From the NCBI GenBank assembly GCA_035601615.1, contig DATNNX010000252.1:1-48495 (forward strand): a stretch of 48,495 nucleotides of DNA, in the 5' to 3' direction. Both the position numbers and the translations under genes were made by a program. The notes below the pieces were generated by a model, which did not search any database, was not told the origin of the DNA, and worked only from the letters and a program-made list of their open reading frames with translations. Positions within the stretch are counted from its first letter, which is position 1. The number at the start of each line of letters is the position of its first letter. This document shows, one piece after another, positions 12,897 through 30,528 of the stretch. Origin of the DNA: Xanthobacteraceae bacterium. GTDB lineage: Bacteria > Pseudomonadota > Alphaproteobacteria > Rhizobiales > Xanthobacteraceae.

Positions 12897-14144
12897 ATGA
12901 ATATCCGCGAAACCGCGCCTCGGATTACCGAGCTCGAGAAGATTTCCACGCGTACCGACACCCGCGACTATCTGGCCAAAGCCGCGCCGACCAAGGAGAA
13001 GCTGAAGGACTGGCTCATCGTCGACGTCGATGCCCACGTCAACGAGACTGCGTTCTGGTCGGAAGTCACTGACCGCATCGATAACGAGGTTCTGCGTTAC
13101 ATCGCCGAGGCGTTCCGCGACCGCGGCCCGTTTCCCGGCTTGTTGAACGCCAACGGGCCGCTCTACCAGGACGTGGCCGGCCGCATCATGCACCAGCAGA
13201 AGCTCGCCGAGGCGACGCCGCCCGGACTGCACCGCCAAGTGCAGCTCACCCAACGCGCCATGGACGCGCTCGGCATCGATTACATGGTGGTGTTTCCAAC
13301 CCCGATGCTCTCGCTCGGCATGCACCCGCAGACCGATGCCGAAGTGGCGCTCGGCAATGCGTATAACCGCTGGTTGATCGAGGAGATCCTGCCCCAGGAC
13401 AAGCGCCAGAAGGCGCTGCTCTATCTACCGTTCAACGATCCCGACGCCTGCGTGGAGACGGTCGAGCGTTTCGCCGACGCGCCCGGCGTGGTCGGCTTCT
13501 CCGTCACCTCCACGCGCCACAAGCCGGTTTGGCACAATTCCTATATGCGGCTTTACGCGGCGCTGCAGGAGACGGGCAAGCCGCTCGGCTTCCATGCGGG
13601 CTTCAGCTGGGCCGATCCGTCGTTCCAGCAGCTCAACCGCTTCATCGGCATGCACTCGCTCTCGTTCGTGCACTTCAACATGATCCACATGACCAACTGG
13701 GTGCTCAACGGCCTGCCCGAGCGGTTTCCCAAGCTCAAGGTGATCTGGATCGAGAGCGGGCTTGCTTGGGTTCCTTTCGTCATGCAGCGGCTCGACTCCG
13801 AATACATGATGCGCACCTCGGAGTGCCCGCTGCTCAAGCGCAAGCCGAGCGAGTACATTCAGGAGATGTACTTCACCAGCCAGCCGCTCGAGCGCAGCAA
13901 CATGAAGCTCACCCAAGCCACCTTCGAGGCGATCAGCGCCGACACGCAACTGCTCTACGCTTCGGACTGGCCGCATTGGGATTTCGACGCGCCGAGCTCG
14001 ATCATCAAGCTGCCGTTCCTCAAAGAGGACGCCAAGCGCAACATTCTTGGGCTCAACGCCGCGCGGCTGTTCGGGCTCGAAGTGCCGGCGGCGAAGTCGG
14101 GCGTGAAGGCCTCGCCGCAGCGCGTCGCCGTGCCGGCCGAATGA
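12897..14144 (+). CDS. Amidohydrolase-2 (ACMSD/LigW-type metal-dependent hydrolase/decarboxylase) family protein, paralog 1
   Basis: N-terminal metal motif LIVDVDAHVNE and C-terminal YASDWPHWD, 415 aa. It is clearly paralogous to 24581-25831. Confidence 0.85.
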   Translation: MNIRETAPRITELEKISTRTDTRDYLAKAAPTKEKLKDWLIVDVDAHVNETAFWSEVTDRIDNEVLRYIAEAFRDRGPFPGLLNANGPLYQDVAGRIMHQQKLAEATPPGLHRQVQLTQRAMDALGIDYMVVFPTPMLSLGMHPQTDAEVALGNAYNRWLIEEILPQDKRQKALLYLPFNDPDACVETVERFADAPGVVGFSVTSTRHKPVWHNSYMRLYAALQETGKPLGFHAGFSWADPSFQQLNRFIGMHSLSFVHFNMIHMTNWVLNGLPERFPKLKVIWIESGLAWVPFVMQRLDSEYMMRTSECPLLKRKPSEYIQEMYFTSQPLERSNMKLTQATFEAISADTQLLYASDWPHWDFDAPSSIIKLPFLKEDAKRNILGLNAARLFGLEVPAAKSGVKASPQRVAVPAE

Positions 14145-14175: not shown

Positions 14176-14481
14176 ATGAGTTCATCCGCGGCCACGGATG
14201 CCGGTAGCGAATCCGGTGCGGCGTTCTGCGCATCGGTCGAGGATGCGCTCAAGAACGGCAGGCCGGATGCCGTGCCGGATGAAGCGCTGCAGCGCGTGCT
14301 CTCCGCGGCCGTGCGGCTCTATGCCGCCAAGTCGGAAGACCGCGCGCGAGAGCTTGCGCCATTCGGCGAGCAGCCGGTGAACGCGACCGAGGCGGTGACG
14401 GCGATCTGCGCGATCATGCGCGCGGCCGATCTCAACTTCTTCGATCTGCAAATGTGGTACCGCCGCGGCGAGCGCGAATGA
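14176..14481 (+). CDS. Small conserved hypothetical protein (cassette partner, copy 1)
   Basis: 101 aa with no domain I recognise. It is homologous by eye to 25892-26299 (EALQRVLSAAVRLYAA...ATEAV...AADLNFFDLQMW vs EALQALMAAVCKTYAA...ATEVM...AANLAVFELGMW). It is tightly packed between the amidohydrolase and Rieske genes. Confidence 0.65.
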   Translation: MSSSAATDAGSESGAAFCASVEDALKNGRPDAVPDEALQRVLSAAVRLYAAKSEDRARELAPFGEQPVNATEAVTAICAIMRAADLNFFDLQMWYRRGERE

Positions 14482-14503
14482 TTTACTAGATTCGGGTGAA
14501 GCG

Positions 14504-14878
14504 ATGAACGAGATCATGGTGGGCGAGCTCAGCGAGTTCGCGGAGGGTGGCTACCGCGTGCTGCGGGTCGATAGCTTCGAGTTCGGCATTTTTCGCCAAG
14601 GCGACCGCCTCGTGGCATACGAGAATCATTGCCCCCACGACGGCGGGCCGGTCTGCCAGGGCAAGGTGATCCCGCGCGTCGAGGAAGAGCTCGCGCCGGA
14701 TCAGACCACCCGCGGACTTCGTTTCTCCAAGAAGCGCAACATCGTCTGTCCTTGGCACGGCTGGGAATTCGACATTGAGACCGGCCGCCACTGCGGCGAC
14801 CCGAAATATCGCTTGCGTCCCGTCGACGTGAAGGTGCGTGACAACCGCGTTTATGTCAGCGTCCCGCCGGCAGCCTGA
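14504..14878 (+). CDS. Small Rieske [2Fe-2S] domain protein (124 aa), copy 1
   Basis: Ligand motifs CPH and CPWHG are present. There is no oxygenase catalytic domain. Confidence 0.88.
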   Translation: MNEIMVGELSEFAEGGYRVLRVDSFEFGIFRQGDRLVAYENHCPHDGGPVCQGKVIPRVEEELAPDQTTRGLRFSKKRNIVCPWHGWEFDIETGRHCGDPKYRLRPVDVKVRDNRVYVSVPPAA

Positions 14879-15049: not shown

Positions 15050-16048
15050 ATGACTACGTCCCTGCTTGAGCTGAGCATCGCCCTGTCGGACAACGAGCGC
15101 ACGCGGCCGTTGATCGAAGGCCGCGTCGTTCCGCAAGGAATCAAGCCGGTCGTCACGGTCGTGCATCCCTCCGAGATGTTCTGGCGGCAGCTGCGCTTCG
15201 CCGAATTCGACGTATCGGAAATGTCGATGTCCTCGCTCATCATCGCGACGTCGCGCGGCGATACCCGCTGGGTGGCGATCCCGGTCTTCACCATGCGCAA
15301 GTTCTTCCATACCAGCGTCATCGTGCGCAGGGATTCCGGCATTGCGGCGCCGGCGGACTTGCGCGGCAAGCGCATCGGCGTGCCGGAATATCAGCAGACC
15401 TGGGCGATCTGGTCGCGCGGCGTGCTGCAGGACGAATTCGGCGTGCATGCCCGCGACATCGAATGGTTCATGGAACGCAATCCGGAGAAAAGTCACGGCG
15501 GAGCGACGGGCTTTAACCCGCCGCCGGGCGTGCGGCTGCACCACATCCCCCCCAGCACGAATATCGGCGACATGCTGCTGCGCGGCGAGCTCGACGGGGC
15601 GCTGCTTTATCTCGTCCATCCCAATCTGATCGATCGCAGTACGGTCGATGTGTCGGGGGTGACGCGTCACCTCTTCCCCGATCCCGCGGCCGAAGGCCGG
15701 CGCTTCTACGCCAAGACCGGCTTGTTTCCGATCAACCATACCGTCGTGGTGCGCCGCTCGCTGCTCGAGCGCCATCCCTGGATCGCGCTCAATCTTTATT
15801 CCGCGTTCGTGGGGGCGAAGGAGGAAATCGCGCGCTGCGGCCAATCCCACCTGCAATGGTATTTCGAAACGGGATTGCTCGACGAGAGCGTCAACCGCAC
15901 GCTGGCGGACAACGATCCGCTGGCTTACGGCTTCAAGGCATCCCGCGCCGTGCTCGAAACCATCGCCCAATACGTGCACGAGCAGGGGTTGAGCGTTCGG
16001 CAGGTGAAGCTCGAGGAATTGTTCGCCGCCAGCACGCTCGACATGTGA
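15050..16048 (+). CDS. 4,5-dihydroxyphthalate decarboxylase-like protein (cytoplasmic PBP-fold)
   Basis: No signal peptide. The N-terminus (LSIALSDNERTRPLIEGRVVPQGI...FWRQLRFAEFDVSEMSMSS) matches my recollection of the PhtD-type family. Confidence 0.65.
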   Translation: MTTSLLELSIALSDNERTRPLIEGRVVPQGIKPVVTVVHPSEMFWRQLRFAEFDVSEMSMSSLIIATSRGDTRWVAIPVFTMRKFFHTSVIVRRDSGIAAPADLRGKRIGVPEYQQTWAIWSRGVLQDEFGVHARDIEWFMERNPEKSHGGATGFNPPPGVRLHHIPPSTNIGDMLLRGELDGALLYLVHPNLIDRSTVDVSGVTRHLFPDPAAEGRRFYAKTGLFPINHTVVVRRSLLERHPWIALNLYSAFVGAKEEIARCGQSHLQWYFETGLLDESVNRTLADNDPLAYGFKASRAVLETIAQYVHEQGLSVRQVKLEELFAASTLDM

Positions 16049-16088
16049 TTTGGCCGCGGATGAATCGTCTCATAAACGAGCGGCACGC

Positions 16089-17720
16089 ATGGGCGTGAGC
16101 AAAGGCTACGACTATGTGATCGTCGGCGGCGGCTCGGCCGGCTGCGTGCTGGCCAATCGCCTGAGCGAGGACGGCGCCGGGCGCGTGCTCTTGATCGAAG
16201 CTGGCGGCCGCGACCTCAATCCGCTCATCCATGTCCCGCTCGGTATGGGCAAGATGCACGAATACGACATGTTCAACTGGGGCTATTCCACCGAGCCCGA
16301 GCCGAACATGAACGGCCGCCGGATCGAAGCCATGCGCGGCAAAGTGCTGGGCGGATCGTCCTCGATCAATGTGATGGCCTATACGCGCGGCCATCGCGGC
16401 GACTATGACCGCTGGGCGCAGAAAGGCGCGCGCGGCTGGTCCTATGCCGACGTGCTGCCCTACTTCAAGCGCTGCGAGCGGTGGGAAGCCAGCGAGGATC
16501 GTTGGCGCGGCGGCGCGGGGCCGGTCGGCACGGAATTCGCCAGAACGGCCGACCCGCTCTACGACGCGTGGATCCAAGCGGCGCTCGCGGCCGGCTTCCC
16601 CGTGACCGACGACTATAACGGCAAGCAGCAGGAAGGTTTTGGCCGCGGCCAATACACCATCCGCGACGGATACCGCTCCTCGGCCGCAAGCGCCTATCTC
16701 AGGCCGGCGCGCAAGCGACCAAATCTCGAGGTTGCGACACGGGCGCATGCGACCCGCGTGCTGATGCGAGGGACCCGCGCGAGCGGTGTCGAATACCGCA
16801 AAGGTGGCCGCCTGGTGAGGGCCGAAGCCGAGCGGGAGGTGATCCTCTCGGCTGGCGCGTTCAACACGCCACCGCTGCTCATGCTGTCAGGAATCGGTCC
16901 GGCCGCGCATCTGCGCGAAATGGGCATCGAGCCGGTGATCGATTTGCCGGTCGGCAAGAACCTGCAGGATCACCTCGCGGTCATCGTCTTCTTCCGGCGC
17001 TTGGACGAAAGCACGTTCATCAAGCAGATGCGGTTCGACCGTATGGCGGTCAGCATGATCCGTGCCTACCTCTTCGGCACCGGCCCCGGTACGGTGGTGC
17101 CCGGCGGCTTGCACGCCTTCGTCAAGACGCGGCCGGAGTTTGCGGTGCCGGACATCGAGTTCATGTTCCGCGGCGCGCCGGCGGCGCCGCATTTGTGGTT
17201 TCCACTCATCCGCGCGGCCTATCTCGACGGCTACGGCATCCGCCCCACGCTCTTGCATCCCGACAGCCGCGGCGAAATCCTGCTGCGCTCGGCCGATCCG
17301 CGCGAGCCGCCGCGCATCGTCTACAAGTTCTTCTCCGCGCCGGACGACCTCCCCCGCCTGCGCGAAGGGTTCAAGCGCGCCCGCGATGTCGCCTATCAGA
17401 AGCCGATGATGCCCTATCGCGGCGCCGAGACCGCGCCCGGCGACAAGGTCAAGAGCGATGCTGAGATCGACGCCTGGATCAGGAATACTGCGATCACCGC
17501 GCATCATCCCTGCGGCACCTGTGCCATGGGAATGGGACCCAACACGGTCACCGACCCGCAGCTGCGGGTGCGTGGGATCGAGCACCTGCGCGTCGTCGAC
17601 GCCTCCGTCATGCCCGATCTCATCTCGGCGCACATCAATGCTTGCGTGCTGATGATTGCCGAGAAGGCGGCCGACCTGATCCGCAATAAGCCAGCGCTGC
17701 CGGCCGACTATGACGCATAG
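16089..17720 (+). CDS. GMC-family FAD oxidoreductase (choline/alcohol dehydrogenase-like)
   Basis: FAD fingerprint YDYVIVGGGSAGCVLANRLSED, GMC signature region and a C-terminal catalytic His region (HHPCGTCAMG). Confidence 0.9.
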   Translation: MGVSKGYDYVIVGGGSAGCVLANRLSEDGAGRVLLIEAGGRDLNPLIHVPLGMGKMHEYDMFNWGYSTEPEPNMNGRRIEAMRGKVLGGSSSINVMAYTRGHRGDYDRWAQKGARGWSYADVLPYFKRCERWEASEDRWRGGAGPVGTEFARTADPLYDAWIQAALAAGFPVTDDYNGKQQEGFGRGQYTIRDGYRSSAASAYLRPARKRPNLEVATRAHATRVLMRGTRASGVEYRKGGRLVRAEAEREVILSAGAFNTPPLLMLSGIGPAAHLREMGIEPVIDLPVGKNLQDHLAVIVFFRRLDESTFIKQMRFDRMAVSMIRAYLFGTGPGTVVPGGLHAFVKTRPEFAVPDIEFMFRGAPAAPHLWFPLIRAAYLDGYGIRPTLLHPDSRGEILLRSADPREPPRIVYKFFSAPDDLPRLREGFKRARDVAYQKPMMPYRGAETAPGDKVKSDAEIDAWIRNTAITAHHPCGTCAMGMGPNTVTDPQLRVRGIEHLRVVDASVMPDLISAHINACVLMIAEKAADLIRNKPALPADYDA

Positions 17721-17972
17721 AGAACGAGGCTCCGTGCATTCTCGCTCGAAGCACGCTAGCGCCTTCTCGGGGCTCTGCGGGATCGTTATCGTTAAGTCGG
17801 ATGCAACCCATGCTTGCGCTCCGGAACGACGTTTCTTGCAGGCTGTTAACGCCGTCTATACGGCGCCCAAGGCTTTGCCCCGTGCCGCCGCGAGGATAGT
17901 ATTCACGCAAGCGTTCGCGTCAGCCGACATAGACCGCACGCCACCGCGGCCGACGATTGAGGGAGAAACGTT

Positions 17973-19937
17973 ATGGCGAAAAAACATCTGCCGGTGAGCC
18001 GGCGCAAGTTCCTGGCGGGAGTGGCAGTGGCAGGTGCGGCGTCCGCGGTGCCGCCGGCGCAAGCTGCGACCACGGCCTCTGCGAGCGCTGCGCCCAGACG
18101 GCCCTCCGCGCTGCCGCCCACGGCGCATGTGGCGGCGGCGGAAAGCGGAACCCCGAACGAATTGTCGACATCGCGCATCGGCGGCACTCCCGGCTCCGAT
18201 TTCATGGTCGACGTTATCAAGACGCTCGATATCAAATATGCGCCGTCGAACTGCGCTTCCAGTTACCGGGGCATTCATGAATCCTTGATCAATTACGGCG
18301 GCAACAAGATGCCGGAGTTCCTCACTTGCACGCATGAGGAATCCGGGGTCGGCATGGCGCATGGCTACTTCAAGGCCGCCGGCAAGCCGCTGATGACGTT
18401 CTGCCACGGGACGGTCGGGCTGCAGCACGCGACGATGGCCGTCTACAACGCGTGGTGCGACCGCGTGCCCGTGATCATCGTCGGCGGCAACGATCTCGAC
18501 GCCGCACATCGGCCGCCGGGCGTGCCGACCATCCATTCCGCGCAGGACATCAACGCGTTGGTGCGCGACTTCACCAAGTGGGACGACACGCCTGTTTCGC
18601 TCCAGCATTTCGCGCAATCCTTCGTGCGCGCATACAAGATCGCGATGACGCCGCCCTACGGTCCGGTCGCCATCTCGCTCGATGCTGGCTTGCAGCAAGA
18701 GGCCATGCGCGACCATGGCGAGAAACTCTATATCCCGCGTTACGTTCCGAGCTCGCCGCCGCAGGGCGATTCGGGCGCCGTGAAAGAGGCGGCGCGGCTG
18801 CTTGCCAACGCGCAGAACCCGGTGATCGTCGTGGATCGCGCTGCCCGAGGTGAGAATGGCATTCGACTCCTGGTCGAATTGGCCGAGTTGCTGCAGGCGC
18901 AGGTAGTCGATCAGGGCAGTCGAATGAACTTCCCCAAGACCCACTATCTCGGCCGCCCGCCTACCGCCGTGAACAATGGCGATGTCATCATCGGCCTGGA
19001 GGTGACCGACTTCTGGGGCACGGTGAATGCCTGGATCGACAATGGTGAACGCGGCATCGGCATCAATACGAGCAGGATCAAGCCCGAAACCAAGCTGATC
19101 AGCATCAGCTCCTCCGAACTTCTGACCAAGGCGAATTACCAGGATTTCCAGCGGTTCCAGTCCGTCGACGTATCGATGCCTGCGGACGCCGAAGCGACCT
19201 TGCCTGCGCTGGTCGAGGCGGTGAAGGCGGCAACCCCCACTGATCGCAAAGCTGCGATCGACAAACGCGGCGAGGCGGCGAAGAAAGCTTATGCCGAGCA
19301 GCGCGTGCGCACAAAGCAGGCCGCGGCCCTCGCCTGGGATGCAAGCCCGGTCAGCACCGCTCGTCTCACCATGGAGACGTGGGCGCACATCAAAGATCTC
19401 GATTGGTCCCTGGTCGCCTCTTCAGGCGACATGAGCAATTGGCCGCAGAGGCTCTGGCCGATGGAAAGATACTACCATTGGCTTGGGAGATCGGGCGGCT
19501 CTGGCGAGGGATACGGCGCGCCCGCGTCCATCGGCGCGGCGCTCGCCAATCGCGATCTCGGCCGTTTTTCCGTGAGCATTCAGGCCGACGGCGACCTCAT
19601 GTATGCGCCGGGCGTGCTGTGGACCGCGGCGCGGCACAAAATCCCGCTGCTCGCGGTGATGCACAACAACCGCGGCTATCACCGAGAAGTCATGCACCTC
19701 CAGCGCCTCTCGAATTTCCGCAATCGTGTGGCAAGCCTCGGCGGCGACTTGGGTCCGATCGGCACCCGCATCGAAAATCCCGACATCGAATATCACAAGC
19801 TCGCGGAGTCCATGGGCTGGTGGGCGAAAGGTCCGATCAACGATCCGGCGCAGCTCGGGCCGGCGCTTAAGGAAGCGGTCGCGGTGGTGAAATCGGGACA
19901 GCCCGCGCTCCTCAATGTGTGGACGCAGCCGCGTTAG
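17973..19937 (+). CDS. Tat-exported thiamine-diphosphate-dependent enzyme
   Basis: Twin-arginine signal MAKKHLPVSRRKFLAGVAVAGAASAVPPAQA. Catalytic-Glu region THEESGVGMAHGY and TPP motif ADGDLMYAPGVLWTAARHKIPLLAVMHNNRGY. RBS GAGGGAG lies upstream. Confidence 0.85.
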   Translation: MAKKHLPVSRRKFLAGVAVAGAASAVPPAQAATTASASAAPRRPSALPPTAHVAAAESGTPNELSTSRIGGTPGSDFMVDVIKTLDIKYAPSNCASSYRGIHESLINYGGNKMPEFLTCTHEESGVGMAHGYFKAAGKPLMTFCHGTVGLQHATMAVYNAWCDRVPVIIVGGNDLDAAHRPPGVPTIHSAQDINALVRDFTKWDDTPVSLQHFAQSFVRAYKIAMTPPYGPVAISLDAGLQQEAMRDHGEKLYIPRYVPSSPPQGDSGAVKEAARLLANAQNPVIVVDRAARGENGIRLLVELAELLQAQVVDQGSRMNFPKTHYLGRPPTAVNNGDVIIGLEVTDFWGTVNAWIDNGERGIGINTSRIKPETKLISISSSELLTKANYQDFQRFQSVDVSMPADAEATLPALVEAVKAATPTDRKAAIDKRGEAAKKAYAEQRVRTKQAAALAWDASPVSTARLTMETWAHIKDLDWSLVASSGDMSNWPQRLWPMERYYHWLGRSGGSGEGYGAPASIGAALANRDLGRFSVSIQADGDLMYAPGVLWTAARHKIPLLAVMHNNRGYHREVMHLQRLSNFRNRVASLGGDLGPIGTRIENPDIEYHKLAESMGWWAKGPINDPAQLGPALKEAVAVVKSGQPALLNVWTQPR

Positions 19938-20393: not shown

Positions 20394-21320
20394 TTACAAA
20401 TCCAGCACCAGCCGCTCGCTCTTGCAGCCGGCGCAGCAGATCATGACCTTGGTGTTGGAGGCCTGCTCCTCCTCGGTGAGGATGGCGTCGTGGTGCTCGG
20501 GGACCCCGGAGATCACCCGCTGCTCGCACGCGCCGCAGATGCCGAGTTCGCAGGAATAGTCGACGTCGACGCCGGCATCCAGCAGCACCTGCAGGATGCT
20601 CTTGCCCTCGGGGATGACGAATTCCTGTCCCGAGCGCGCGAGTTCGACCACGAACCCGCCCTTCTTGTCGGCCCCTTGCTTGGGCGTGAAATATTCGACG
20701 TGGATCTGCGCGCGCGGCCAATCCGCGGTCGCCGCCTCGAATGCCTTGAGCATCGGGGTGGGTCCGCAGCAATAGAGGTGTGCCTCACGTGGCGCCTCGG
20801 TGACGATCGAGTTGACGTCGAGGACTTTGCCGCAGTGCTCGTCGTCGAAATGGAAGTGCGTATGGCCGATCGCTTCGAGCGCTTGCAAGAAGGCCATGTC
20901 GGCGCGCGAGCGACAGGCATAGTAGAGCTGCCAGGAGCGTCCGAGCTTGTGCAAGCGCTGCACCATGCACCAGATCGGGGTGATGCCGATGCCGCCGGCC
21001 AGGAGCACGACATGGCCGGCGTCCTCCCCCAGCGGGAAATTGTTGCGCGGCGCGCTGATCTTGAGCGTCCTGCCGACGCGCAGCTCGTCGTGCACACAGC
21101 GCGAGCCGCCGCGGCTTGCCGGATCGCGCTTGACGGTGACGGTGTAGCTTAAAGGATCGGGCTCCGGCTCGATCAACGAGTACTGACGGATGAGCCCATT
21201 CGGCAAGTGCAGGTCGATATGGGCGCCGGGGTCATAGGGCGGCAACGGCTTTCCGTCCACTGGCGCAAACTCATAGGCGTTTGTGTCGCGCGCCGCGTAG
21301 CGGATCGCGCTCACACGCAT
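20394..21320 (-). CDS. PDR/VanB-family oxidoreductase (FMN/NAD-binding domains plus C-terminal plant-type [2Fe-2S])
   Basis: RQYSL flavin motif, GGIGITP NAD motif and a C-terminal CELGICGACE cluster. I take the start at ATG 21320 (MRVSAIRY, 308 aa). The longer GTG 21449 start is possible. Confidence 0.85.
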   Translation of the reverse strand: MRVSAIRYAARDTNAYEFAPVDGKPLPPYDPGAHIDLHLPNGLIRQYSLIEPEPDPLSYTVTVKRDPASRGGSRCVHDELRVGRTLKISAPRNNFPLGEDAGHVVLLAGGIGITPIWCMVQRLHKLGRSWQLYYACRSRADMAFLQALEAIGHTHFHFDDEHCGKVLDVNSIVTEAPREAHLYCCGPTPMLKAFEAATADWPRAQIHVEYFTPKQGADKKGGFVVELARSGQEFVIPEGKSILQVLLDAGVDVDYSCELGICGACEQRVISGVPEHHDAILTEEEQASNTKVMICCAGCKSERLVLDL

Positions 21321-21604
21321 CTCGATGAGGCCACCCGCCGTGTGTGCCGGCCTCGCCTCGCCCGCTGCGGCCGTCGTTCTATTCACCGATGTGTCTCCCG
21401 CGGCAGCGCCAGCCTCATCGGGCACCGAAGCTCGTTTGTCAATTATCACACCTCAGATATGCTTGCTTCGCGCGCAATCCAACGCGCAGAGAATCGAGTG
21501 GATGCGCGGCGCCGCCCCCGCGCGCTCGAGCACGGCTTCCTCGCGGCGAGGCAAGAGCTGAGCGAAAATGTGACGGGACCCGCCCAGCCCCAAGAGAGAA
21601 GAAA

Positions 21605-22651
21605 TTGAAAGGCTCTCCCAAAGCCATATCCCTCCGAGTTCTGGCGCTTTCTCTGTCGCTCGTTCCGGTTCTTAGAGCCGGACCGGCTGGCGCGCAGGCG
21701 CCGCCCTCTTGGCTCGACCCGGCCTTGCTCACGGCGGCGAAAGCGGAAGGCTCGCTGATCGTCTATTCCTCGACCAACGAGCAAGAGGGTCTGCCGTTGT
21801 TCAAACTGTTCACCGAGGCGACCGGCATCGCGGTCGAATATGTGCGCGCATCGGACGCGGTGCTGATGTCGCGCATGGGAATCGAGTTTCGTGCCGGGCA
21901 GCGGTCCTACGATATCGTGCAGACCGCGACCATCAACAAGATGCCGCCGCAGATGCTGGCGCAATACGAGCCGCCCGAGGCGACCAACATCTCTTCGCAG
22001 GCGCGAGATCCGGGCAAACGCTGGTGGGGCGTTTATGCCAATTACAATTCGCCGGCTTACAACACCGAACGCGTGAAAGCCTCCGAGCTGCCACGCGGCT
22101 ACGAGGAGTTTGCGCAGCGCAAGGAGTGGGCTGGCAAGGTCGCAATCGACGGCACCGACAACGAATGGCTCAAGGCGATGATCGAGCATTTCGGTGAGGG
22201 CGAGGGCGCCGAGCTCGTCAAACGCATCGTGGCAACGCTGCGGCCCGTCGTCACCGACGGCCACCTCGCCATGGCGCGAGCGACCGGCGCTGGCGAATAT
22301 TGGGTGTCGCTGAACAATTACGTGAACCTGTCGATGAACGTCAAACTTGGTGGCGCCCCGATCGACGTCTGGCCTCTCGACCCGGTCACGCTGTTCTTCG
22401 GACAGGTCGGGGTGAATGCGAGGGCGCCGCATCCGAGCGCGGCCCGCCTTGCCGCCAATTTCATGCTCAGCCGCGAATGCCAAGCGTTTCTCGCCAAGTT
22501 TGGACGATTGCCGACGCGTCAGGACGTGCAGTCGAACCCGCCGGGTGTCATCGCGGCGCTGACCCAGAAGAAAGTCATCACCGTGCTGATGAGCCCCGAC
22601 GAGGAGCGCAAATGGCAGCGGCGTTTCGATCAGCTGTTCAAGGGGCGGTGA
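21605..22651 (+). CDS. ABC transporter periplasmic substrate-binding protein (family 1, Fe(III)/polyamine-like)
   Basis: Signal peptide KGSPKAISLRVLALSLSLVPVLRAGPAGAQA, then LIVYSSTNEQE. There is no in-frame ATG before the signal peptide, so I infer a TTG start at 21605 after a purine-rich stretch. Confidence 0.75.
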   Translation: MKGSPKAISLRVLALSLSLVPVLRAGPAGAQAPPSWLDPALLTAAKAEGSLIVYSSTNEQEGLPLFKLFTEATGIAVEYVRASDAVLMSRMGIEFRAGQRSYDIVQTATINKMPPQMLAQYEPPEATNISSQARDPGKRWWGVYANYNSPAYNTERVKASELPRGYEEFAQRKEWAGKVAIDGTDNEWLKAMIEHFGEGEGAELVKRIVATLRPVVTDGHLAMARATGAGEYWVSLNNYVNLSMNVKLGGAPIDVWPLDPVTLFFGQVGVNARAPHPSAARLAANFMLSRECQAFLAKFGRLPTRQDVQSNPPGVIAALTQKKVITVLMSPDEERKWQRRFDQLFKGR

Positions 22652-22703
22652 GTTTTTCTTCTCCTTACCTCGTCTTGCCTCTCCCCGCCTGCCGGGAGCG
22701 CAT

Positions 22704-22727
22704 CCTCTCCCCGCAAGCGGGGAGAGG
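22704..22727. repeat. GC-rich perfect hairpin (CCTCTCCCCGC-aa-GCGGGGAGAGG) within a short repeat-like spacer
   Basis: An 11-bp perfect inverted repeat. A second CTCTCCCCGC half-site lies about 25 nt upstream. The hairpin sits between the SBP and permease genes. Confidence 0.55.
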
Positions 22728-22745
22728 GAGATCGGAGCGTGCTGT

Positions 22746-24512
22746 TTGAGTATTGCCAACGGCCGTCTAGACGATCTACCCGGCGTAGCGGCTGTCGGCC
22801 GCTTGGCTGCTGTCGCGAGCCTGCCAAACCTCATGCTCGTCGGGTGCGTTGTCGTCGTGGTTTGGCTCGTTTTCGTTCCGCTCTCGGCGCTCCTCTACAA
22901 CGCCTTCACTGAGGATACCGGATTCGGGCCGGGCGGCTTGTCGCTCGATAATTTTGTCGAGGCTTATTCGAGTTGGCACATTCCGGGACTGCTCTGGAAT
23001 TCCGTGGTCTTTGCGCTCGGCACGGCCCTGGCGACATTCGTGATGGGCGCGCTCGTCGCCTGGGTTGTCGAGCGCACCGACGCGCCGGGCGGAAGCCTGT
23101 TTCACGTCATGTCGCTGCTGTCTTTCGCGGTGCCCGGATTATTGATGGCGATGGCCTGGATCTTCGTCCTCAGCCCGAACATCGGCTGGGGCAACGCGGC
23201 CCTCAAAACGGCCTTCGGGCTGAGCGAAGCGCCGCTCAATATCTATTCGATGACCGGCATGATTTGGGCGCTGGCAAGCCACTATTTTCCGCTCGCTTAT
23301 CTCATGCTGGGGCCGGCCTTGCGCGCGCTCGACCTGCGCATGGAGGAGGCCGCGCTCATGGCCGGCGCAAGTTACCTGCAAGTCTTCATCAAGGTCACGC
23401 TGCCGTTGCTGCGGCCCGCGATTCTTTCCGCGCTGCTGCTGCTGTTCGTGATGGGCATGGCCTCCTACGAGGTCCCGCGCCTCATCGGCCGGCCGGCGCG
23501 CATCGACGTGTTTACCACAGACATCCAGGGCGCCATCATCGCCGCGCCGCCGGCTTTCGGAGTGGCAAGCGCGCTTGGCCTCGCGCTGCTCGCGATCTGC
23601 GTGCTTGCCGTATTCTTCTATCGTCGCGTCACCCAGCACGCGGAAGCTTTCGCCACTATAACCGGTAAAGGGTACCGGCCGGCGCGTATCAAGCTCGGGC
23701 GCGCCCGCTGGCCCATCGCGCTGGGGGTCGGCGCGATGTTCGTCTTCGCGCTCGGCCTGCCGCTCGTCACGCTCCTTTGGCAGTCCTTCTTCCGCAATCT
23801 GGCGCAGCCGTTCGTCTTCACAGCCGCGCGGGCGACGCTCGAGAACTACGAGTTCATCCTGAGCTATCCGATATTTCTCGCGGCGGTGAAAACGAGCGTG
23901 CTGCTCGCGGCAATGGCCGCGACTATCGTTGCCGGCCTCACCTTCGTCATGGCCTGGATCGCGCAGCGGTCGCTGCCGCGCTACGCCCTCATCCTCGACG
24001 TGCTCGCCTTTGCGCCGATCGCCATACCGGGGGTCATTGTCGGCGCCGGAATCCTCATCGCCTATCTCATGCTGCCGATTCCCATCTACAACACGATCTG
24101 GATCCTGCTGGTTGCCTATGTGACGTTGTATCTTCCCTACGGGATGCGGTTTGCGTCGAGCGGGATCGCGCAAATTCATCGCGAGCTCGAGGAGATGGCG
24201 GCGGTCTCGGGTGCCGGGCTCGCCCAGACTTTCACGCGCATCTTGCTCCCGCTTCTCGCGCCGGTGCTGCTGGCAGGCTGGATCTACGTCTTCGTGCTGG
24301 CGGTGCGCGAGCTCGGCGCGTCGATCTTCTTGGTCGGCCCCGGCACGCACGTGCTGGGCACCATCAGTTTGACGATGTGGGAGGAGGGCGGCAGCTATGG
24401 CGCGGTCGCGGCGCTAGGTGTGATTCAGATCGTTCCCCTCGTCGTGATCGTCGCAGGACTACGATCGATCGAGCTGCGCATCCAGCGGCGCGCGCAAGTA
24501 CAGTCATCGTAG
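22746..24512 (+). CDS. Fused two-domain ABC transporter permease (FbpB/iron(III)-type)
   Basis: About 12 TM segments and two binding-protein-dependent permease modules (EAALMAGASYLQVFIKVTLPLLRPA and EMAAVSGAGLAQTFTRILLPLLAPV). The start is uncertain (TTG 22746, TTG 22803 or ATG 22833). Confidence 0.85.
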   Translation: MSIANGRLDDLPGVAAVGRLAAVASLPNLMLVGCVVVVVWLVFVPLSALLYNAFTEDTGFGPGGLSLDNFVEAYSSWHIPGLLWNSVVFALGTALATFVMGALVAWVVERTDAPGGSLFHVMSLLSFAVPGLLMAMAWIFVLSPNIGWGNAALKTAFGLSEAPLNIYSMTGMIWALASHYFPLAYLMLGPALRALDLRMEEAALMAGASYLQVFIKVTLPLLRPAILSALLLLFVMGMASYEVPRLIGRPARIDVFTTDIQGAIIAAPPAFGVASALGLALLAICVLAVFFYRRVTQHAEAFATITGKGYRPARIKLGRARWPIALGVGAMFVFALGLPLVTLLWQSFFRNLAQPFVFTAARATLENYEFILSYPIFLAAVKTSVLLAAMAATIVAGLTFVMAWIAQRSLPRYALILDVLAFAPIAIPGVIVGAGILIAYLMLPIPIYNTIWILLVAYVTLYLPYGMRFASSGIAQIHRELEEMAAVSGAGLAQTFTRILLPLLAPVLLAGWIYVFVLAVRELGASIFLVGPGTHVLGTISLTMWEEGGSYGAVAALGVIQIVPLVVIVAGLRSIELRIQRRAQVQSS

Positions 24513-24580
24513 CGCCAAGCGCGGGTCCGCCCTATTCGGTCGCCGACCGAGTTCGCGCGCGCCGGCCGCTACTCCGATGG

Positions 24581-25831
24581 CTAAGCCGCGGCGGCGAGAT
24601 TGCCGAAGCGCTTCAGGTTCTCCCGCTGCTTTTCATTGCGCGGCGGCAGCTTGAACAGCCGCGCGGCGGTGCCGCCGAGAATGTTGTGCTTGCCCTTCTC
24701 CGAGAGGAACGGCAAGTCGTAGATCGTGGCCGGCAGGTCGAAGTCCCAGTGCGGATAATCCGACGAGTAGAGGAGCTGCGTCTCGGCGTTGATCATGCGG
24801 AACGTGCATTCCAGCGCCTGGCGGTCCTGGATCTCGATCGGCTGCGAGGAATAGTACATGTCGCGCATATAGTCGGACGGCTTCTTCTTGAGGAGCGGTG
24901 CCTCCGACGGGCGCATCATGAATTCGTGATCGAGCCGCTGCATCAAGAACGGAACCCAAGCGAGCCCGGATTCGATCCAGATCACCGGCAGTTTGGGGAA
25001 GCGCTCGCCCATGCCGTTGATCACCCAATTGGTGCAGTGAAGGATGTTGTAGAAGGTGAAGCCGAGCGCGTGCACCGACAGGAAGCGGTTGCAGGCGCGG
25101 AACACCGGCTCGTTCCAGTTCGGCCCGGAGTGGAATGCGAGCGCGAGCCCGCGCTCCTCCAGCATGCGGTAGAGCCGCATATAGGCGTTATCGTTGACTT
25201 GCAGGTGGCGCACCGTCGTGACCATGAAGCCGGTCACGTGCTTGCGGCTGCCGAAGGTCTCGACCTGGCGCACGCAGGCGGCTGGATCAGAGAACGGCAG
25301 GCACAGCATGGAATACATGCGCCCGTCCGCCTCGGGCAGCACCTTCTCGGTGACCCAGCGGTTGTAGGCCCAGCAGAGGTCCGCCTCCATCTCCTTCTGC
25401 GGATGCATGCCGATGTTGAGCATGCCGGTCGGGAACAGGCAGGAGTAGTCCACGCTCATCGCATCCATCCAGCGCTCGCCGAGCTGCACGTCGCGATGCT
25501 TGCCGTTTTGCTCCGTCTTCTCGGAGCGCCGCAGCGGATAGCGGGTCACGCGCCCGCCCATGTCCTGGATGAAGCCCGCGTTGGTCGGCACGACCGAGCC
25601 GCGATCGGTCAGGCCGCGGCCGCCCATGGTCCACTGCCGGAACACGTCGTTTTCCATGTAGGGCAGGATGTCGCTGTAGTGCTCGTTTTCGTAGTGGTGC
25701 GCGTCCACATCGACGATGAGAATATCGTCGAGCTTGCGCCGCACCGCCTGCTTGCGGGCGTGGGCGAGAAGTCTGCTGGTGTTCAACTCATCGACAGAGA
25801 CGCGTCGACCGCGTTCAGCGAGGAGGTCCAT
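24581..25831 (-). CDS. Amidohydrolase-2 family protein, paralog 2
   Basis: LIVDVDAHHYE and YSSDYPHWD motifs, 416 aa. AGGAGA RBS. Collinear similarity to 12897-14144. Confidence 0.85.
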   Translation of the reverse strand: MDLLAERGRRVSVDELNTSRLLAHARKQAVRRKLDDILIVDVDAHHYENEHYSDILPYMENDVFRQWTMGGRGLTDRGSVVPTNAGFIQDMGGRVTRYPLRRSEKTEQNGKHRDVQLGERWMDAMSVDYSCLFPTGMLNIGMHPQKEMEADLCWAYNRWVTEKVLPEADGRMYSMLCLPFSDPAACVRQVETFGSRKHVTGFMVTTVRHLQVNDNAYMRLYRMLEERGLALAFHSGPNWNEPVFRACNRFLSVHALGFTFYNILHCTNWVINGMGERFPKLPVIWIESGLAWVPFLMQRLDHEFMMRPSEAPLLKKKPSDYMRDMYYSSQPIEIQDRQALECTFRMINAETQLLYSSDYPHWDFDLPATIYDLPFLSEKGKHNILGGTAARLFKLPPRNEKQRENLKRFGNLAAAA

Positions 25832-25891
25832 GGTTCGTCTCCTGGGTTTTCCAAATCCTGCTTGCGTCCTGCAGGCAAAGCCGCGTTCGGC

Positions 25892-26299
25892 CTAACGGCC
25901 GGTCCAGCTCTGCCACATGCCGAGTTCGAATACGGCGAGATTGGCAGCCTTGAGCAGCCCGCTCGCGGTGATCATGACTTCGGTGGCGGTGGCGCCGCCA
26001 CGCTGCGGAAGCGGCAGCACCTCATCGCCCGCCTCGACTTGTGCCGCGTAGGTCTTACACACGGCGGCCATGAGCGCCTGCAGCGCCTCGGTGCTCAGTG
26101 CATCGCGCCGGCCGCTGGCAAGCGCCCGCTCGAGCTCGGCGGCAAGCCGCTTCGCCTGTCCGGAGCCGGCACCGTTCGCGGTTTCACCCGCCGGTTTTGG
26201 TTCTCGCTCGACCGACTTGGCGCCTCTGGTGCGCTTTGCGGCCGGCCGCGCCGTCACTGCCGCGCGCCGCGCGGCCTTTGCCGCCCTAGGTGAGGACAT
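25892..26299 (-). CDS. Small conserved hypothetical protein (cassette partner, copy 2) with a basic Ala/Lys/Arg-rich N-terminal extension
   Basis: The C-terminal 80 aa are homologous to 14176-14481. ATG 26299 overlaps the Rieske gene 3' end by 14 nt. An alternative GTG lies at 26257. Confidence 0.6.
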   Translation of the reverse strand: MSSPRAAKAARRAAVTARPAAKRTRGAKSVEREPKPAGETANGAGSGQAKRLAAELERALASGRRDALSTEALQALMAAVCKTYAAQVEAGDEVLPLPQRGGATATEVMITASGLLKAANLAVFELGMWQSWTGR

Positions 26300-26651
26300 A
26301 AACTTCGTCGCCTTTCTCCAGCACCTTGTACTTGCGCAGCTTGAGCTTGCGATCCGACACGCATTCGCCGGTCTTCATGTCGTATTCGTAGCCGTGCCAC
26401 GGACAGACGAAATGCATTTCGTTCTCGGAGAAGTAGAGTCCCTGCGAGGTCTTGTCGGGCAACAGCCGCTCCTCGACTTTGGCGATGGTGAGGCCTTCGC
26501 AAGCGGGGCCGCCCTGGTGCAGGCAGAAATTGCTGTAGGCGTAGAATTGGCCCTCATGCCGGAAGATGCCGATCTCGTTGTCTCCGGCGAAGATGATCCG
26601 GCGGTCGCCGTCCTTGAACTCGGCGATCTTGCCGACATACTGCTCGGCCAT
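26286..26651 (-). CDS. Small Rieske [2Fe-2S] domain protein (121 aa), copy 2
   Basis: CLH and CPWHG ligand motifs. AAGGAGG RBS before ATG 26651 (MAEQYVGKIAEF). Confidence 0.88.
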   Translation of the reverse strand: MAEQYVGKIAEFKDGDRRIIFAGDNEIGIFRHEGQFYAYSNFCLHQGGPACEGLTIAKVEERLLPDKTSQGLYFSENEMHFVCPWHGYEYDMKTGECVSDRKLKLRKYKVLEKGDEVYVLT

Positions 26652-26739
26652 GCTGCGACGCCTCCTTGACGTTTCCTGCGATTGGTTCGCTTGACTTTGG
26701 GATACCCCTTGTGGCGGCGGAATCGGCATCCATCCGAAT

Positions 26740-26831: not shown

Positions 26832-27758
26832 TCACGCCATCTTATTGGTCAGCGTTCCGATTTTCTCGATCCAGATTTTGACGACGTCGCCCGCCTTGAG
26901 GAATTCCCCGCGCGCCGCGCCGACCCCGGCGGGCGTGCCGGTGAGAATGATGTCGCCCGGATGGAGCGTCATCCCGCTCGATAATTGCGCGATCTGCTCG
27001 GCCAGATTGAAGATCATATTCTTGCTGTGGGAGTCCTGCTTGAGGACGTCGTTCACCCACAGCTTGAGGCTGAGCTTTTGCGGGTTGCCGATGTCGCGCG
27101 CCGGCACGATCCAAGGGCCCAGCGGGCAGGACCCGTCGAAGGTCTTGTGCTTGGTCCAATCGGACTTGAACGGGGAGGTGTCGCTGATGTTCGCCCGCCG
27201 CCCGCGGTCGCGCGCGGACAGGTCATTTGCCGCGGTATAGCCGGCAACGTAATCGAGCGCCTTGTCCTGGGGCACGTTTTTGGCCGCTCTGCCGATCACC
27301 GCCGCAAGCTCGACCTCCCAATCCATCTCGCTCGAGTACCCGGAAATCTTCACCGTCGCGCTGGGGTCGGCGAGCGTTCGCGCCGCCTTGATGAAATGCC
27401 ATGCCTTGAGGCCTTGGGTGTGCGGATCTGGCTCGGGCGGCCGGTTCATGCGCCGGGCCATTTCCGCGGCATGATCGGCATAGTTGGCGCCGGCGCAATA
27501 GATCGCCGATGGCCAGCGCACGGGTGCCAATAATTTCGCGCGTCCGAGCGGCAGCGGCTTGATGCGGCTCTTGCCCGCCGCCGCAGCCGCCTTGCGCAGG
27601 ACGCCTTGCGCCGTTCTCCAGTCCTCGAGGATGCCGAGCACCGTTGCATAGGCGGCTTTGCCGGTGAGTTTGGCGGCATCGAACACCTTGTCGTCGATCA
27701 CCAGCCCCGCGCGCGCGCCATCGGAGGCTTGGTAGGTCGCGAGCTTGTAGCCGTCCAT
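26832..27758 (-). CDS. Fumarylacetoacetate hydrolase (FAH) family protein
   Basis: The C-terminal FAH fold matches (DWEVELAAVIG, NDLSARD, GDIILTGTPAGVG). I take the start at ATG 27758 (MDGYKLATY), preceded by GGGGAGA. Confidence 0.88.
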   Translation of the reverse strand: MDGYKLATYQASDGARAGLVIDDKVFDAAKLTGKAAYATVLGILEDWRTAQGVLRKAAAAAGKSRIKPLPLGRAKLLAPVRWPSAIYCAGANYADHAAEMARRMNRPPEPDPHTQGLKAWHFIKAARTLADPSATVKISGYSSEMDWEVELAAVIGRAAKNVPQDKALDYVAGYTAANDLSARDRGRRANISDTSPFKSDWTKHKTFDGSCPLGPWIVPARDIGNPQKLSLKLWVNDVLKQDSHSKNMIFNLAEQIAQLSSGMTLHPGDIILTGTPAGVGAARGEFLKAGDVVKIWIEKIGTLTNKMA

Positions 27759-28013: not shown

Positions 28014-28901
28014 ATGGTCAAAGCGAGACGCGTCGGTCACGCGACCTTCGAGACGCCCGATCTGGAAAAGGCCATCACTTATTACGGCGAGTTCATGGGA
28101 CTGATCGTCGCCGAGCGCGAAAAGGATCGCGCCTTTCTCGCCACCAAGATCGGGCAGCTGGTGATCGAGCTCAACAAGGCGGATCGGGCCCACTGCATCA
28201 AGCTGTCTTTCGAGGTCGCGGCCAATTCCGATTTCGGCGAATTGGCGCGCGAGCTATCCAAGGACGGCGTACGCAGCGAACTGCGCAACGATTCCGTTCC
28301 CGGCATGGGCCAAGTCCTGTCGTTCAAGGACGACAAAGGAACCATTATCGACCTGTTCAAAGACTGGAGCTATCTCGCCAAGCACGCGCAGGTCGCCGGC
28401 GTCGGGCCGCTCAAGCTCGGGCATGTCGCTTTCTTCACGCCCGACATCCAGCGCACGGTTGCGTTCTACGAGCGGGTCCTCGGCTTTCGCGTCTCCGATT
28501 GGATCGGGGATTTTTTCTGCTTCATGCGCTGCAACACGGATCATCACACCGTGAATTTCTTCACCGGGCCCGACGTGAAGCTGCATCACATCGCCTTCGA
28601 GCTCAAGGATTTCATGCATCTCCAGAACTCTTGCGACGTTATGGGCCAGAAACAGGTGCCGATCATCTGGGGTCCCTTGCGGCATGGGCCGGGGCACAAC
28701 GTCGCCACCTACCATCGCAATCCGGATGACCAGGTCGTTGAATTTTTCTCCGAGCTCGATCAAATGATCGACGAGGAGCTCGGCTATTTCGAGCCGCGGC
28801 CCTGGCACCGCGACACGCCGCAGCGGCCCAAGCGCTGGACGCCGGGCAAGACCAACGTGTGGGGCCCCTCGCCGGAGGAGGATTTCCACCGGACACAGTG
28901 A
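28014..28901 (+). CDS. Two-domain VOC-superfamily extradiol ring-cleavage dioxygenase
   Basis: Two glyoxalase-like modules. Candidate Fe ligands are LGHVAF, LHHIAF and VVEFFSE. AAAGGAGAA RBS. Confidence 0.85.
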   Translation: MVKARRVGHATFETPDLEKAITYYGEFMGLIVAEREKDRAFLATKIGQLVIELNKADRAHCIKLSFEVAANSDFGELARELSKDGVRSELRNDSVPGMGQVLSFKDDKGTIIDLFKDWSYLAKHAQVAGVGPLKLGHVAFFTPDIQRTVAFYERVLGFRVSDWIGDFFCFMRCNTDHHTVNFFTGPDVKLHHIAFELKDFMHLQNSCDVMGQKQVPIIWGPLRHGPGHNVATYHRNPDDQVVEFFSELDQMIDEELGYFEPRPWHRDTPQRPKRWTPGKTNVWGPSPEEDFHRTQ

Positions 28902-30032: not shown

Positions 30033-30034
30033 GC

Positions 30035-30523: not shown

Positions 30524-30528
30524 GGTGC

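Follow-up and report, generated by a model that had tools for sequence, protein, structure and literature searches.

Two paralogous gene cassettes for predicted ARO-type monooxygenases, each with a conserved small helical protein, in a catabolic supercluster of a Xanthobacteraceae bacterium

Introduction

The dinuclear oxygenases of the PF04909 (Amidohydro_2) family, referred to as AROs, have been recognised only in 2019–2026; approximately 17,000 sequences are predicted to belong to this class, most of them annotated as "amidohydrolases", and fewer than 20 have been studied, so far either alone or with a Rieske ferredoxin only, their native substrates being mostly unknown. AROs are defined by an N-terminal D-x-H and a C-terminal D-x-P-H-x-D/E motif, both missing from all characterised PF04909 hydrolases and decarboxylases (PMC13154177), and their pairing with a Rieske ferredoxin is already published (Liu, Rittle et al., JACS 2024, 2026: PMC10811679, PMC13154177). 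The subject of the present analysis is a stretch of 48,495 nt from a Xanthobacteraceae bacterium (contig DATNNX010000252.1), hereafter the window, which carries two cassettes, each consisting of a PF04909 gene, a Rieske gene and, between them, a gene for a small protein. The reading that we favor, with a probability of about 0.75, is that the cassettes encode two paralogous multicomponent ARO monooxygenases belonging to one catabolic supercluster and that the small protein is their accessory partner. What looks new is an ARO monooxygenase endowed with an extra conserved component that lacks a known fold family.

The closest described systems are the pairs SfbO/SfbR, D3EI84, W7L2Y2 and B6JH23 which, like the window cassettes, comprise a PF04909 TIM barrel with the D-x-H and D-x-P-H-x-D motifs and aromatic residues at the positions γ4 and γ5, together with a Rieske ferredoxin of ~120 aa whose gene adjoins that of the oxygenase in one operon. 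The window differs from these pairs by the conserved third gene, encoding a four-helix protein, located between oxygenase and ferredoxin, and by an Ala instead of Val or Ile at γ1. No third small component is mentioned in the ARO literature that was searched, including PMC10811679 and PMC13154177, although other papers may hold one. An ARO oxygenase likewise operates with a small Rieske ferredoxin and a reductase in the 2-aminoisobutyrate hydroxylase AibH1H2/AibG/AibF of Rhodococcus wratislaviensis (PMC7782822, PMC10401708). The window oxygenases match AibH2 (6M1W_B) with E values from 2e-23 to 5e-29, but AibH2 is partnered by a further PF04909 subunit, AibH1, which is catalytically silent, whereas each window cassette has a single PF04909 gene and an unrelated helical core of ~90 aa.

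Toluene-4-monooxygenase (T4MO, TmoA-F) and its relatives combine a dinuclear-metal hydroxylase with the Rieske ferredoxin TmoC, a cofactor-less effector, TmoD, encoded beside it, and an FNR-type reductase having a plant-type [2Fe-2S] cluster. The window module appears to parallel this enzyme in the logic of its parts, an analogy of function and not a homology; indeed, the T4MO hydroxylase is a ferritin-like four-helix bundle and its effector an alpha/beta protein of the MmoB/DmpM family, whereas the oxygenase of the window is a TIM barrel and its small protein is all-helical and has no Pfam match, the folds being unrelated. Finally, the hydrolases and decarboxylases of PF04909 (LigW, LigI, ACMSD and γ-resorcylate decarboxylase) have both the Pfam family and the TIM-barrel fold in common with the window proteins, which accounts for the database name "amidohydrolase family protein", but possess a mononuclear or metal-free site and neither the D-x-H nor the D-x-P-H-x-D/E motif (PMC13154177).

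Organization of the two cassettes

The open reading frame (ORF) map and the sequence confirm all coordinates of cassette 2, which is read on the minus strand in the order Rieske → small ORF → PF04909, and place cassette 1, in the order PF04909 → small ORF → Rieske, on the plus strand at 12897-14878 (Table 1). Thus, the outer genes are swapped between the two copies whereas the small gene is central in both, as the sequence-only reading of this DNA had maintained. In cassette 2, a Shine-Dalgarno (SD) sequence AAGGAGG (26667-26661) lies 9 nt ahead of the ATG of the Rieske gene, whose orthologues are called at 121 aa in other genomes too, and an AGGAG sits 7 nt before the ATG of the PF04909 gene. 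By BLASTP, the two copies display 51% identity (E 3e-136) in their PF04909 proteins, 37% (E 6e-15) in their small proteins and 45% (E 1e-37) in their Rieske proteins, a similarity that for all three is far beyond chance.

Table 1. Location of the cassette components and of the neighboring features in the window
Feature	Coordinates	Strand	Remarks
ARO-type dinuclear oxygenase (predicted), cassette 1	12897..14144	+	415 aa; PF04909; D-A-H and D-W-P-H-W-D motifs
Small accessory protein (putative), cassette 1	14176..14481	+	101 aa; short non-basic tail, core as in cassette 2
Rieske-type ferredoxin, cassette 1	14504..14878	+	124 aa; PF00355 E 3e-13
Genes after cassette 1	15050..19937	+	cytoplasmic PhnD/NMT1-like protein 15050-16048; GMC oxidoreductase 16050-17720; ThDP-dependent enzyme 17973-19937; Pfam, NCBIfam
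Candidate shared reductase	20394..21449	-	FNR-type NAD-binding domain and C-terminal plant-type [2Fe-2S]; start codon uncertain; Pfam Fer2 and NAD_binding_1
ABC transporter: solute-binding protein and permease	21344..24512	+	Pfam SBP_bac_6, BPD_transp_1; start of first gene uncertain
ARO-type dinuclear oxygenase (predicted), cassette 2	24581..25831	-	416 aa; PF04909; ATG 25831, stop ends 24581
Small accessory protein (putative), cassette 2	25892..26299	-	135 aa; ATG 26299-26297, stop 25894-25892
14-nt overlap of Rieske gene and small ORF, cassette 2	26286..26299	-	small-protein ATG within Rieske codons TAT-GTC (T-ATG-TC, Tyr-Val)
Rieske-type [2Fe-2S] ferredoxin, cassette 2	26286..26651	-	121 aa; PF00355 E 1.2e-14; ATG 26651, stop TAG 26288-26286
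AT-rich perfect palindrome TTGTAT-A-ATACAA	26740..26752	.	~90 nt upstream of cassette 2 Rieske ATG, in the 180-nt FAH-Rieske gap
FAH-family protein (HpaG-like hydrolase/isomerase/decarboxylase)	26832..27758	-	PF01557 E 5.6e-69, NCBIfam; start ATG 27758 inferred
Extradiol ring-cleavage dioxygenase (VOC family; HpaD/catechol 2,3-dioxygenase-like)	28014..28901	+	Pfam and NCBIfam; divergent from FAH gene

The PF04909 proteins as predicted dinuclear oxygenases

The PF04909 domain is matched with E 2.8e-21 in copy 2 and 8.1e-32 in copy 1, and neither protein receives a name from NCBIfam. Both signature motifs of the AROs are present. At the N-terminus, the D-x-H of VDVDAHH (copy 2) and VDVDAHV (copy 1) aligns with DvDvH of the solved ARO 8SM7 and with DcDvH of SfbO, and the C-terminal motif, preceded as is expected of class members by at least about 200 residues ahead of the D-x-P-H-x-[D/E], reads SDWPHWD in copy 1 and SDYPHWD in copy 2, where it is found at about residue 357 (SSDYPHWDFD) and is identical to the sDyPHwDfD of 8SM7. 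Furthermore, the His of FHSG/FHAG and the Glu of IWIESG, candidates for the remaining metal ligands of the class (a mid-barrel His and a bridging carboxylate), align with an H and an E that are conserved in 8SM7, 8SM6 and 8SM9. The γ4 residue, inside the C-terminal motif, is Trp and γ5, the next after the motif, is Phe. In these two residues the window proteins agree with what has been described for the low-potential, Mn-capable AROs, in which γ1 is hydrophobic, γ2 hydrophilic and γ4 aromatic (PMC13154177, Table 1 therein) and in which γ5 is aromatic and a Rieske gene is found nearby, the γ5 residue having been proposed to be the contact of the Rieske ferredoxin.

The best relatives of both window oxygenases in the PDB are all AROs, namely 8SM7 (D3EI84), which is the closest to either, 8SM9, 8SM6 (SfbO), 6M1W_B (AibH2) and 8SM8, followed by PtmU3. 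The ARO matches, with E values from 1e-22 to 5e-42, all rank above the decarboxylases LigW and ACMSD, and enzymes of the LigW/LigI/ACMSD type are matched more weakly (E 1e-7 to 1e-15, as compared to 1e-36 to 1e-42 for the best AROs). Compared to 8SM7, the window proteins are ~65 residues longer, which includes an N-terminal extension of ~33 residues.

Since both signature motifs are present and the top solved relatives are all AROs, the PF04909 proteins are, as judged from their sequences, AROs and not hydrolases, a refinement of the "amidohydrolase" of the sequence-only reading. A metal-dependent hydrolase or decarboxylase of the LigW, LigI or ACMSD type, with the Rieske protein serving another oxygenase, would find some justification in the Pfam family that is common to these enzymes, in the presence of LigW and ACMSD lower down the list of PDB matches and in the ring-cleavage pathway neighborhood, where decarboxylases are common; nevertheless, the two motifs, the identity of the five top solved relatives, the lack of a Rieske oxygenase large subunit beside either cassette and the co-inheritance of ARO and Rieske genes across orders of Alphaproteobacteria render this alternative highly improbable.

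The Rieske proteins and the candidate reductase

The Rieske proteins bear the cluster ligands CxH…CxxH in the form FCLH…CPWH (copy 2) and HCPH…CPWH (copy 1), and the PF00355 domain spans nearly the whole of their 121 and 124 aa, leaving no catalytic domain. By their sequences, they are therefore ferredoxins of the AibG/SfbR kind and not oxygenase subunits, so that the previous assignment to the Rieske family is retained but narrowed down to small ferredoxins.

The reductase that may be shared by the two cassettes displays similarity to the PaaE, GbcB, BenC and MmoC reductases of NCBIfam, in each case under the curated cut-off. In eight related loci (e.g., L004 and L010), its gene immediately follows that of the cassette 2 oxygenase and has the same orientation. 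In the window, the two genes are separated by an ABC transporter (a solute-binding protein and a fused permease) encoded on the opposite strand, which is present at this site in some relatives and absent in others, L004 and L010 having the reductase right after the oxygenase. From this comparison, the transporter appears to have been inserted into an operon of greater age.

The small protein

No Pfam family matches either of the two small proteins at E ≤ 0.01 or any of 24 relatives at E ≤ 1, and NCBIfam offers no match. A profile search of the PDB sequences gave no relative and Foldseek, queried with the structural model of the protein, retrieved no chain from the PDB (E ≤ 10) and no meaningful match from BFVD. 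On the other hand, the family is large, with 989 clusters at 50% identity (E ≤ 0.001, exhaustive profile search) and, when 90% identity is taken as the limit, 5,618 homologous clusters, whose names are without exception "hypothetical" or weak labels. The frame of the small ORF has the GC3 of a coding sequence (0.78–0.81 compared to 0.61–0.72 in the other frames), and the dN/dS of the core (residues 45-135) is 0.27 in the lineage of copy 2 and 0.17 in that of copy 1, the oxygenase and the ferredoxin having values of 0.11–0.18; the core changes about twice as fast as the neighboring proteins. AlphaFold2, which with a shallow alignment had reached a pLDDT of 57, produced in the run with 148 sequences that replaced it a model consisting of four helices with pLDDT 93.2 and pTM 0.81.

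The coding GC3, the constraint on the core, the thousands of homologues and the confident fold indicate that the small protein is, on sequence grounds, a real and widespread protein. Spurious ORFs are common in GC-rich genomes, and several overlap this region on the other strand, but in view of these four properties the probability that the small ORF represents a chance frame is practically negligible. Four soil metatranscriptomes contain contigs that fall on 24574-26661, one of them matching exactly within the small ORF (25966-26205), and none on the flanks, which is weak evidence for the transcription of cassette 2 in situ.

The near-invariant residues of the small protein are Tyr84, Thr106, Leu121, Phe124 and Trp129. 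Neither Cys nor His is conserved anywhere in the family, the copy 1 protein having no His at all, so that no cofactor is to be expected; two acidic positions, within the motifs ATE/ATD and FELGMW/FDLQMW, are conserved together with the invariant Tyr, Thr and Trp. Three family assignments were considered and rejected: that of an HPt domain, a JGI label carried by some members of the copy 1 type, because a conserved phospho-accepting His, a Foldseek match in the PDB and a Pfam match are all lacking; that of DUF2252, also a JGI label, because there is no Pfam match; and that of the MmoB/DmpM effectors, because the alpha/beta fold of PF02406 is found neither as a Pfam match nor in the AlphaFold2 model, which is all-helical. 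Two ~500-aa proteins (P0392 and P0393) that could have been taken for natural fusions turned out to be C-terminal frameshift extensions. In a protein of 186 aa (P0154), a singleton cluster found on one 5,955-nt contig, a Rieske ferredoxin deprived of its last ~20 residues is fused to the core of the small protein; this may reflect either a genuine deletion and fusion or an error of assembly and constitutes weak evidence.

In cassette 2, the conserved four-helix core (residues 45-135, 26167-25895) is preceded by a basic tail rich in Ala, Lys, Arg and Pro (residues 1-44, 26299-26168). In the lineage in which the Rieske gene comes first, the net charge of this tail is +8 in the median, its composition is reminiscent of histone H1 and it occurs in 22 different lengths (17–68 aa), each in frame with the overlapping ATG. 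The preservation of the frame speaks for translation of the tail, and its variability for a function of the protein that is centered elsewhere. In some members, including that of Sinorhizobium (P0191, P0194, P0200, P0211, P0214, P0217; L166 6707-7195), Lys/Ala/Pro-rich tails reach ~120 aa, and the long tails hold a conserved internal motif, KAAF-x-KAM…G-I/V…VE-V/I-LR-R/K-I, which copies 1 and 2 do not possess.

An alternative suggested by the basic tail is that the small protein regulates the cassette without belonging to the enzyme, for instance as an autoregulator that would bind DNA through tails as basic and, in relatives, as long as those just described. The palindrome found upstream of the cassette 2 Rieske gene would suit such a function; it is unique in the window, where none is expected by chance, occurs at the same relative site in six close loci and may be an operator. 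The scans for promoters and terminators gave chance-level results for both cassettes. However, the tails of the copy 1, Aminobacter and Phaeobacter proteins are short and non-basic with the core and the gene position unchanged, the core has no match to a helix-turn-helix or other DNA-binding family, and separate regulators of the MarR, LysR or IclR type adjoin many of the cassettes. A regulatory role is accordingly very unlikely.

The overlapping start codon

The ATG at 26299 lies within the last codons of the Rieske gene, giving rise to the 14-nt overlap that the sequence-only reading had reported and that can be read directly from the sequence. Each of the 66 complete trios in the Rieske-first lineage has the ATG 14 nt ahead of the end of the Rieske gene, and the Tyr codon that provides its A and T is TAT in 66/66, compared to 17/190 (about 9%) in the other three conserved Tyr columns of the ferredoxin, the 66 loci being related to one another, so that a binomial P overstates the significance. 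In genomes that are rich in GC, such a difference in codon choice is a clear sign of selection acting on the start codon of the small protein. This 14-nt arrangement recurs, by annotation or on inspection of the sequence, in Bradyrhizobium sp. dw_411, in two further distant subgroups and in Phaeobacter, Sinorhizobium and Neorhizobium, whereas in Mesorhizobium the overlap is 11 nt, and an SD-like purine run is found 6–15 nt upstream of the small-protein ATG in 58/63 loci.

A true start far downstream would have done away with the overlap and with the translational coupling that was proposed on its account. The sole other start that would keep the conserved core is GTG 26257 (codon 15), but MSSPRAAK, the N-terminal sequence that begins with the overlapping ATG, is conserved in close homologues, and gene callers elsewhere choose this same ATG. 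Given the conservation of the overlap and the selected codon choice, translational coupling between the Rieske and the small gene is plausible. A TAT, and hence an embedded ATG, is found at the same C-terminal Tyr also in the copy 1 Rieske gene (14851-14878) and its kin, in 40/42 of the type-1 loci (L081-L160), where the ATG opens no conserved ORF (1–89 codons); this may be the remnant of an ancestral order with the Rieske gene first, or it may just reflect inertia within a shallow clade.

Co-inheritance of the three genes and age of the copies

Neighbor-joining trees with 200 bootstraps were constructed for each of the three proteins of 14 trios. The group with the order ARO-small-Rieske comprised window copy 1, three metagenome relatives and the trio of the Aminobacter aminovorans plasmid pAA01; that with the order Rieske-small-ARO comprised window copy 2, three Xanthobacteraceae metagenome-assembled genomes (MAGs), Sinorhizobium, two loci of subgroup 3, one of subgroup 5 and Phaeobacter, Bradyrhizobium being represented in this second group as well. 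The split by gene order was recovered in all three protein trees (200/200, 177/200 and 189/200). Pairwise identities point in the same direction, in that all three proteins of Aminobacter are nearer to copy 1 and all three of Phaeobacter and of Sinorhizobium to copy 2, each window copy being nearer to the cassettes of other genera than to the other window copy. The distance matrices of the three proteins correlate with one another inside either lineage (Mantel r 0.54–0.87, p = 0.001), a result that speaks for co-inheritance and not for physical co-adaptation, since any three linked genes would show it.

The three-tree split by gene order and the correlation within the lineages lead to the conclusion that the copies are ancient paralogues or were acquired separately. 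The low identities between the copies and their greater proximity to the cassettes of other genera leave a recent segmental duplication followed by shuffling with next to no probability. The phylogenies, which had been set beforehand as the test of whether the three families have unrelated histories, thus yielded two co-inherited lineages, and the long-term maintenance of the three-way association gains support from the gene-order clades of all three trees.

Distribution of the small gene

Among the 169 loci examined, the small gene is located between the Rieske and ARO genes wherever the contig allows this to be seen, with the exception of one distant haloarchaeal pair. For the copy 2 type, the order Rieske-small-ARO on one strand was found in 79 of the 80 best genome loci, the remaining one being cut by a contig end; for the copy 1 type, the order ARO-small-Rieske was found in 73 of the 80 best metagenome loci, the rest being likewise cut. 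In three members of distant subgroups, the small gene is again inserted between genes for a 121-aa Rieske protein and a 418–422-aa PF04909 protein, within neighborhoods that differ from one another (TctC/LysR; aldehyde dehydrogenase; MarR/NMT1).

Among cultured bacteria, on complete plasmids, 27 records contain an oxygenase at least 47% identical to that of copy 2. The middle gene was seen directly in five cultured genera (Phaeobacter, Aminobacter, Sinorhizobium, Neorhizobium and Mesorhizobium) and, by tblastn match only, in two more; those of Neorhizobium and Mesorhizobium belong to the family according to hhalign (98.4–98.7% probability). Trios of cultured strains are those of Phaeobacter gallaeciensis P75 (PhaeoP75_RS20375, RS20370, RS20365), Aminobacter aminovorans KCTC 2477 (AA2016_RS28295, RS28290, RS28285) and Neorhizobium petrolearium OS53 (QEO92_RS29665, RS29670, RS29675). 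The small gene is present with every proteobacterial ARO checked that is at least 47% identical to the copy 2 oxygenase. In the haloarchaeal pair, which is found on a plasmid of Halobellus limi (L169, 2962-4454), the ARO and Rieske genes overlap by 4 nt, and a CGCGG-family rSAM-modified RiPP protein is encoded nearby.

Gene neighborhood and possible substrate class

The FAH-family gene lies directly upstream of the cassette 2 Rieske gene, on the same strand, in 48/62 related loci, and the extradiol dioxygenase gene occurs in 60/80. Downstream of cassette 1, genes for the PhnD/NMT1-like protein, the GMC oxidoreductase and the ThDP-dependent enzyme are found in 52/80, 36/80 and 21/80 loci, respectively, the length of the contigs restricting these counts. 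The ThDP and GMC genes of L004 are found just past the reductase of cassette 2, within 6 kb of this cassette. Since in L004 and L010 the ThDP, GMC and reductase genes connect the cassettes, both belong to one conserved supercluster in which they face each other.

The neighbors, i.e., the extradiol dioxygenase, the FAH-family protein, the GMC and ThDP enzymes and the LigK/PobA pathway of Aminobacter described below, suggest that the cluster serves the catabolism of aromatic acids, in which the cassettes would carry out two different oxidations; the aromatic substrates that the sequence-only reading had in mind fit the extradiol dioxygenase and FAH-family neighbors without being proven by them. 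On Aminobacter aminovorans pAA01 (L165, 5655-14201), the genes ARO-small-Rieske are followed, via 4-nt overlaps, by that of a FAD-dependent oxidoreductase and further on by those of a second PF04909 protein, two RraA-family proteins, a LigK-type aldolase and PobA, a lower pathway of the protocatechuate/gallate type that hints at the substrate class. A literature lead, the four-component picolinate oxygenase PicB, was dropped because this is a classical Rieske oxygenase, and another, on riboflavin catabolism, proved irrelevant.

Two further observations concern the surroundings of the cassettes. A sulfur-oxidation set consisting of a SoxA-type cytochrome c, SoxYZ, a cytochrome c and a flavocytochrome c sulfide dehydrogenase lies beside the catabolic cluster (28939-32254, minus strand), SoxA and SoxYZ adjoining cassette 2 also in 24–28 related loci, and a large subunit of the molybdopterin-dependent xanthine-dehydrogenase/aldehyde-oxidase family is encoded upstream in the window (4209-6722).

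Proposed mechanism and role of the small protein

The gene structure, the motif-based family membership, the co-inheritance, the purifying selection and the conserved overlap are direct results of the analysis; the electron path, the metal content, the role of the small protein and the substrate are what we infer from sequence, as follows. Electrons of NAD(P)H would be taken up by the reductase (20394-21449), which is their most likely source, and passed to the Rieske ferredoxin and from there to the dinuclear site (Mn/Fe or Fe2) of the 416-aa oxygenase, where O2 would be activated and a C–H bond hydroxylated. If the group attacked were a methoxy or N-alkyl group of the substrate, the hydroxylation would amount to a dealkylation, the reaction that SfbO carries out. 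Cassettes 1 and 2 would probably catalyze two different steps, hydroxylations or dealkylations, within a single pathway.

The small protein, devoid of a cofactor, would be made in step with the ferredoxin by virtue of the 14-nt overlap and would bind the oxygenase and/or the ferredoxin stoichiometrically, acting as an effector, an adaptor or a small subunit. A stoichiometric partner is favored by the predicted synthesis together with the ferredoxin, by the lack of cofactor ligands and by the middle position that was kept after the swap of the neighboring genes. That the four-helix protein is, more specifically, an obligatory component of a large proteobacterial ARO clade, docking between oxygenase and ferredoxin and gating electron transfer or O2 activation, is a tentative proposal that has somewhat less than an even chance of being correct. 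If it were, these would be four-component enzymes (oxygenase, small protein, ferredoxin and reductase) of a design convergent with that of toluene-4-monooxygenase, the small protein having a fold without a solved relative.

The diiron monooxygenases offer, with DmpK and MmoD, the analogues of a different function, namely that of a transient maturation factor. Such a factor would load or assemble the Mn/Fe center of the oxygenase and would not take part in catalysis as a stoichiometric partner. The two conserved acidic positions, which together with the invariant Tyr, Thr and Trp stand out in a protein without conserved Cys or His, the approximately twofold faster evolution of the small protein and the ability of AROs as a class to fold without it (PMC10811679) are in keeping with this possibility. 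On the other hand, the tight 14-nt linkage with the ferredoxin gene and the invariable central position point to production in equimolar amounts, a pair of carboxylates falls short of a recognisable metal site, and the searches revealed no similarity to known metallochaperones. On balance, a maturation factor appears unlikely and the stoichiometric accessory partner is preferred.

Several observations weigh against the picture of an accessory partner within a multicomponent ARO monooxygenase. The γ1 residue is Ala, as opposed to the Val or Ile of the Mn-type AROs that have been studied, and Ala is ambiguous on the octanol scale. In 39/62 relatives, other genes are found downstream of the oxygenase and the reductase is mostly non-adjacent, so that the latter is not a fixed part of the module. 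The N-terminal tail is near-neutral (dN/dS about 0.94), and the metatranscriptome contigs may be DNA carry-over, besides which contigs of related strains would also end where conservation ends. Partial Mantel correlations single out neither the oxygenase nor the ferredoxin as the partner of the small protein. Finally, four AROs that were crystallised needed no partner for folding and metal binding (PMC10811679), and the haloarchaeal ARO-Rieske pair (~30% identical) has no small gene, which means that AROs in general do not need the small protein.

Implications

A conserved third partner would mark a whole subclade of the AROs, and the small protein may be the missing piece for the reconstitution of native activity and electron transfer. 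The succession of a Rieske gene, a 14-nt overlap, a small protein beginning with MSS and a PF04909 gene provides a signature for re-annotation. The two reordered copies within a single supercluster represent a natural experiment, in which the central small gene has outlived the swap of its neighbors and, with the module present in cultured Phaeobacter, Aminobacter, Sinorhizobium, Neorhizobium and Mesorhizobium, the question of what the small protein contributes to these enzymes is directly testable.

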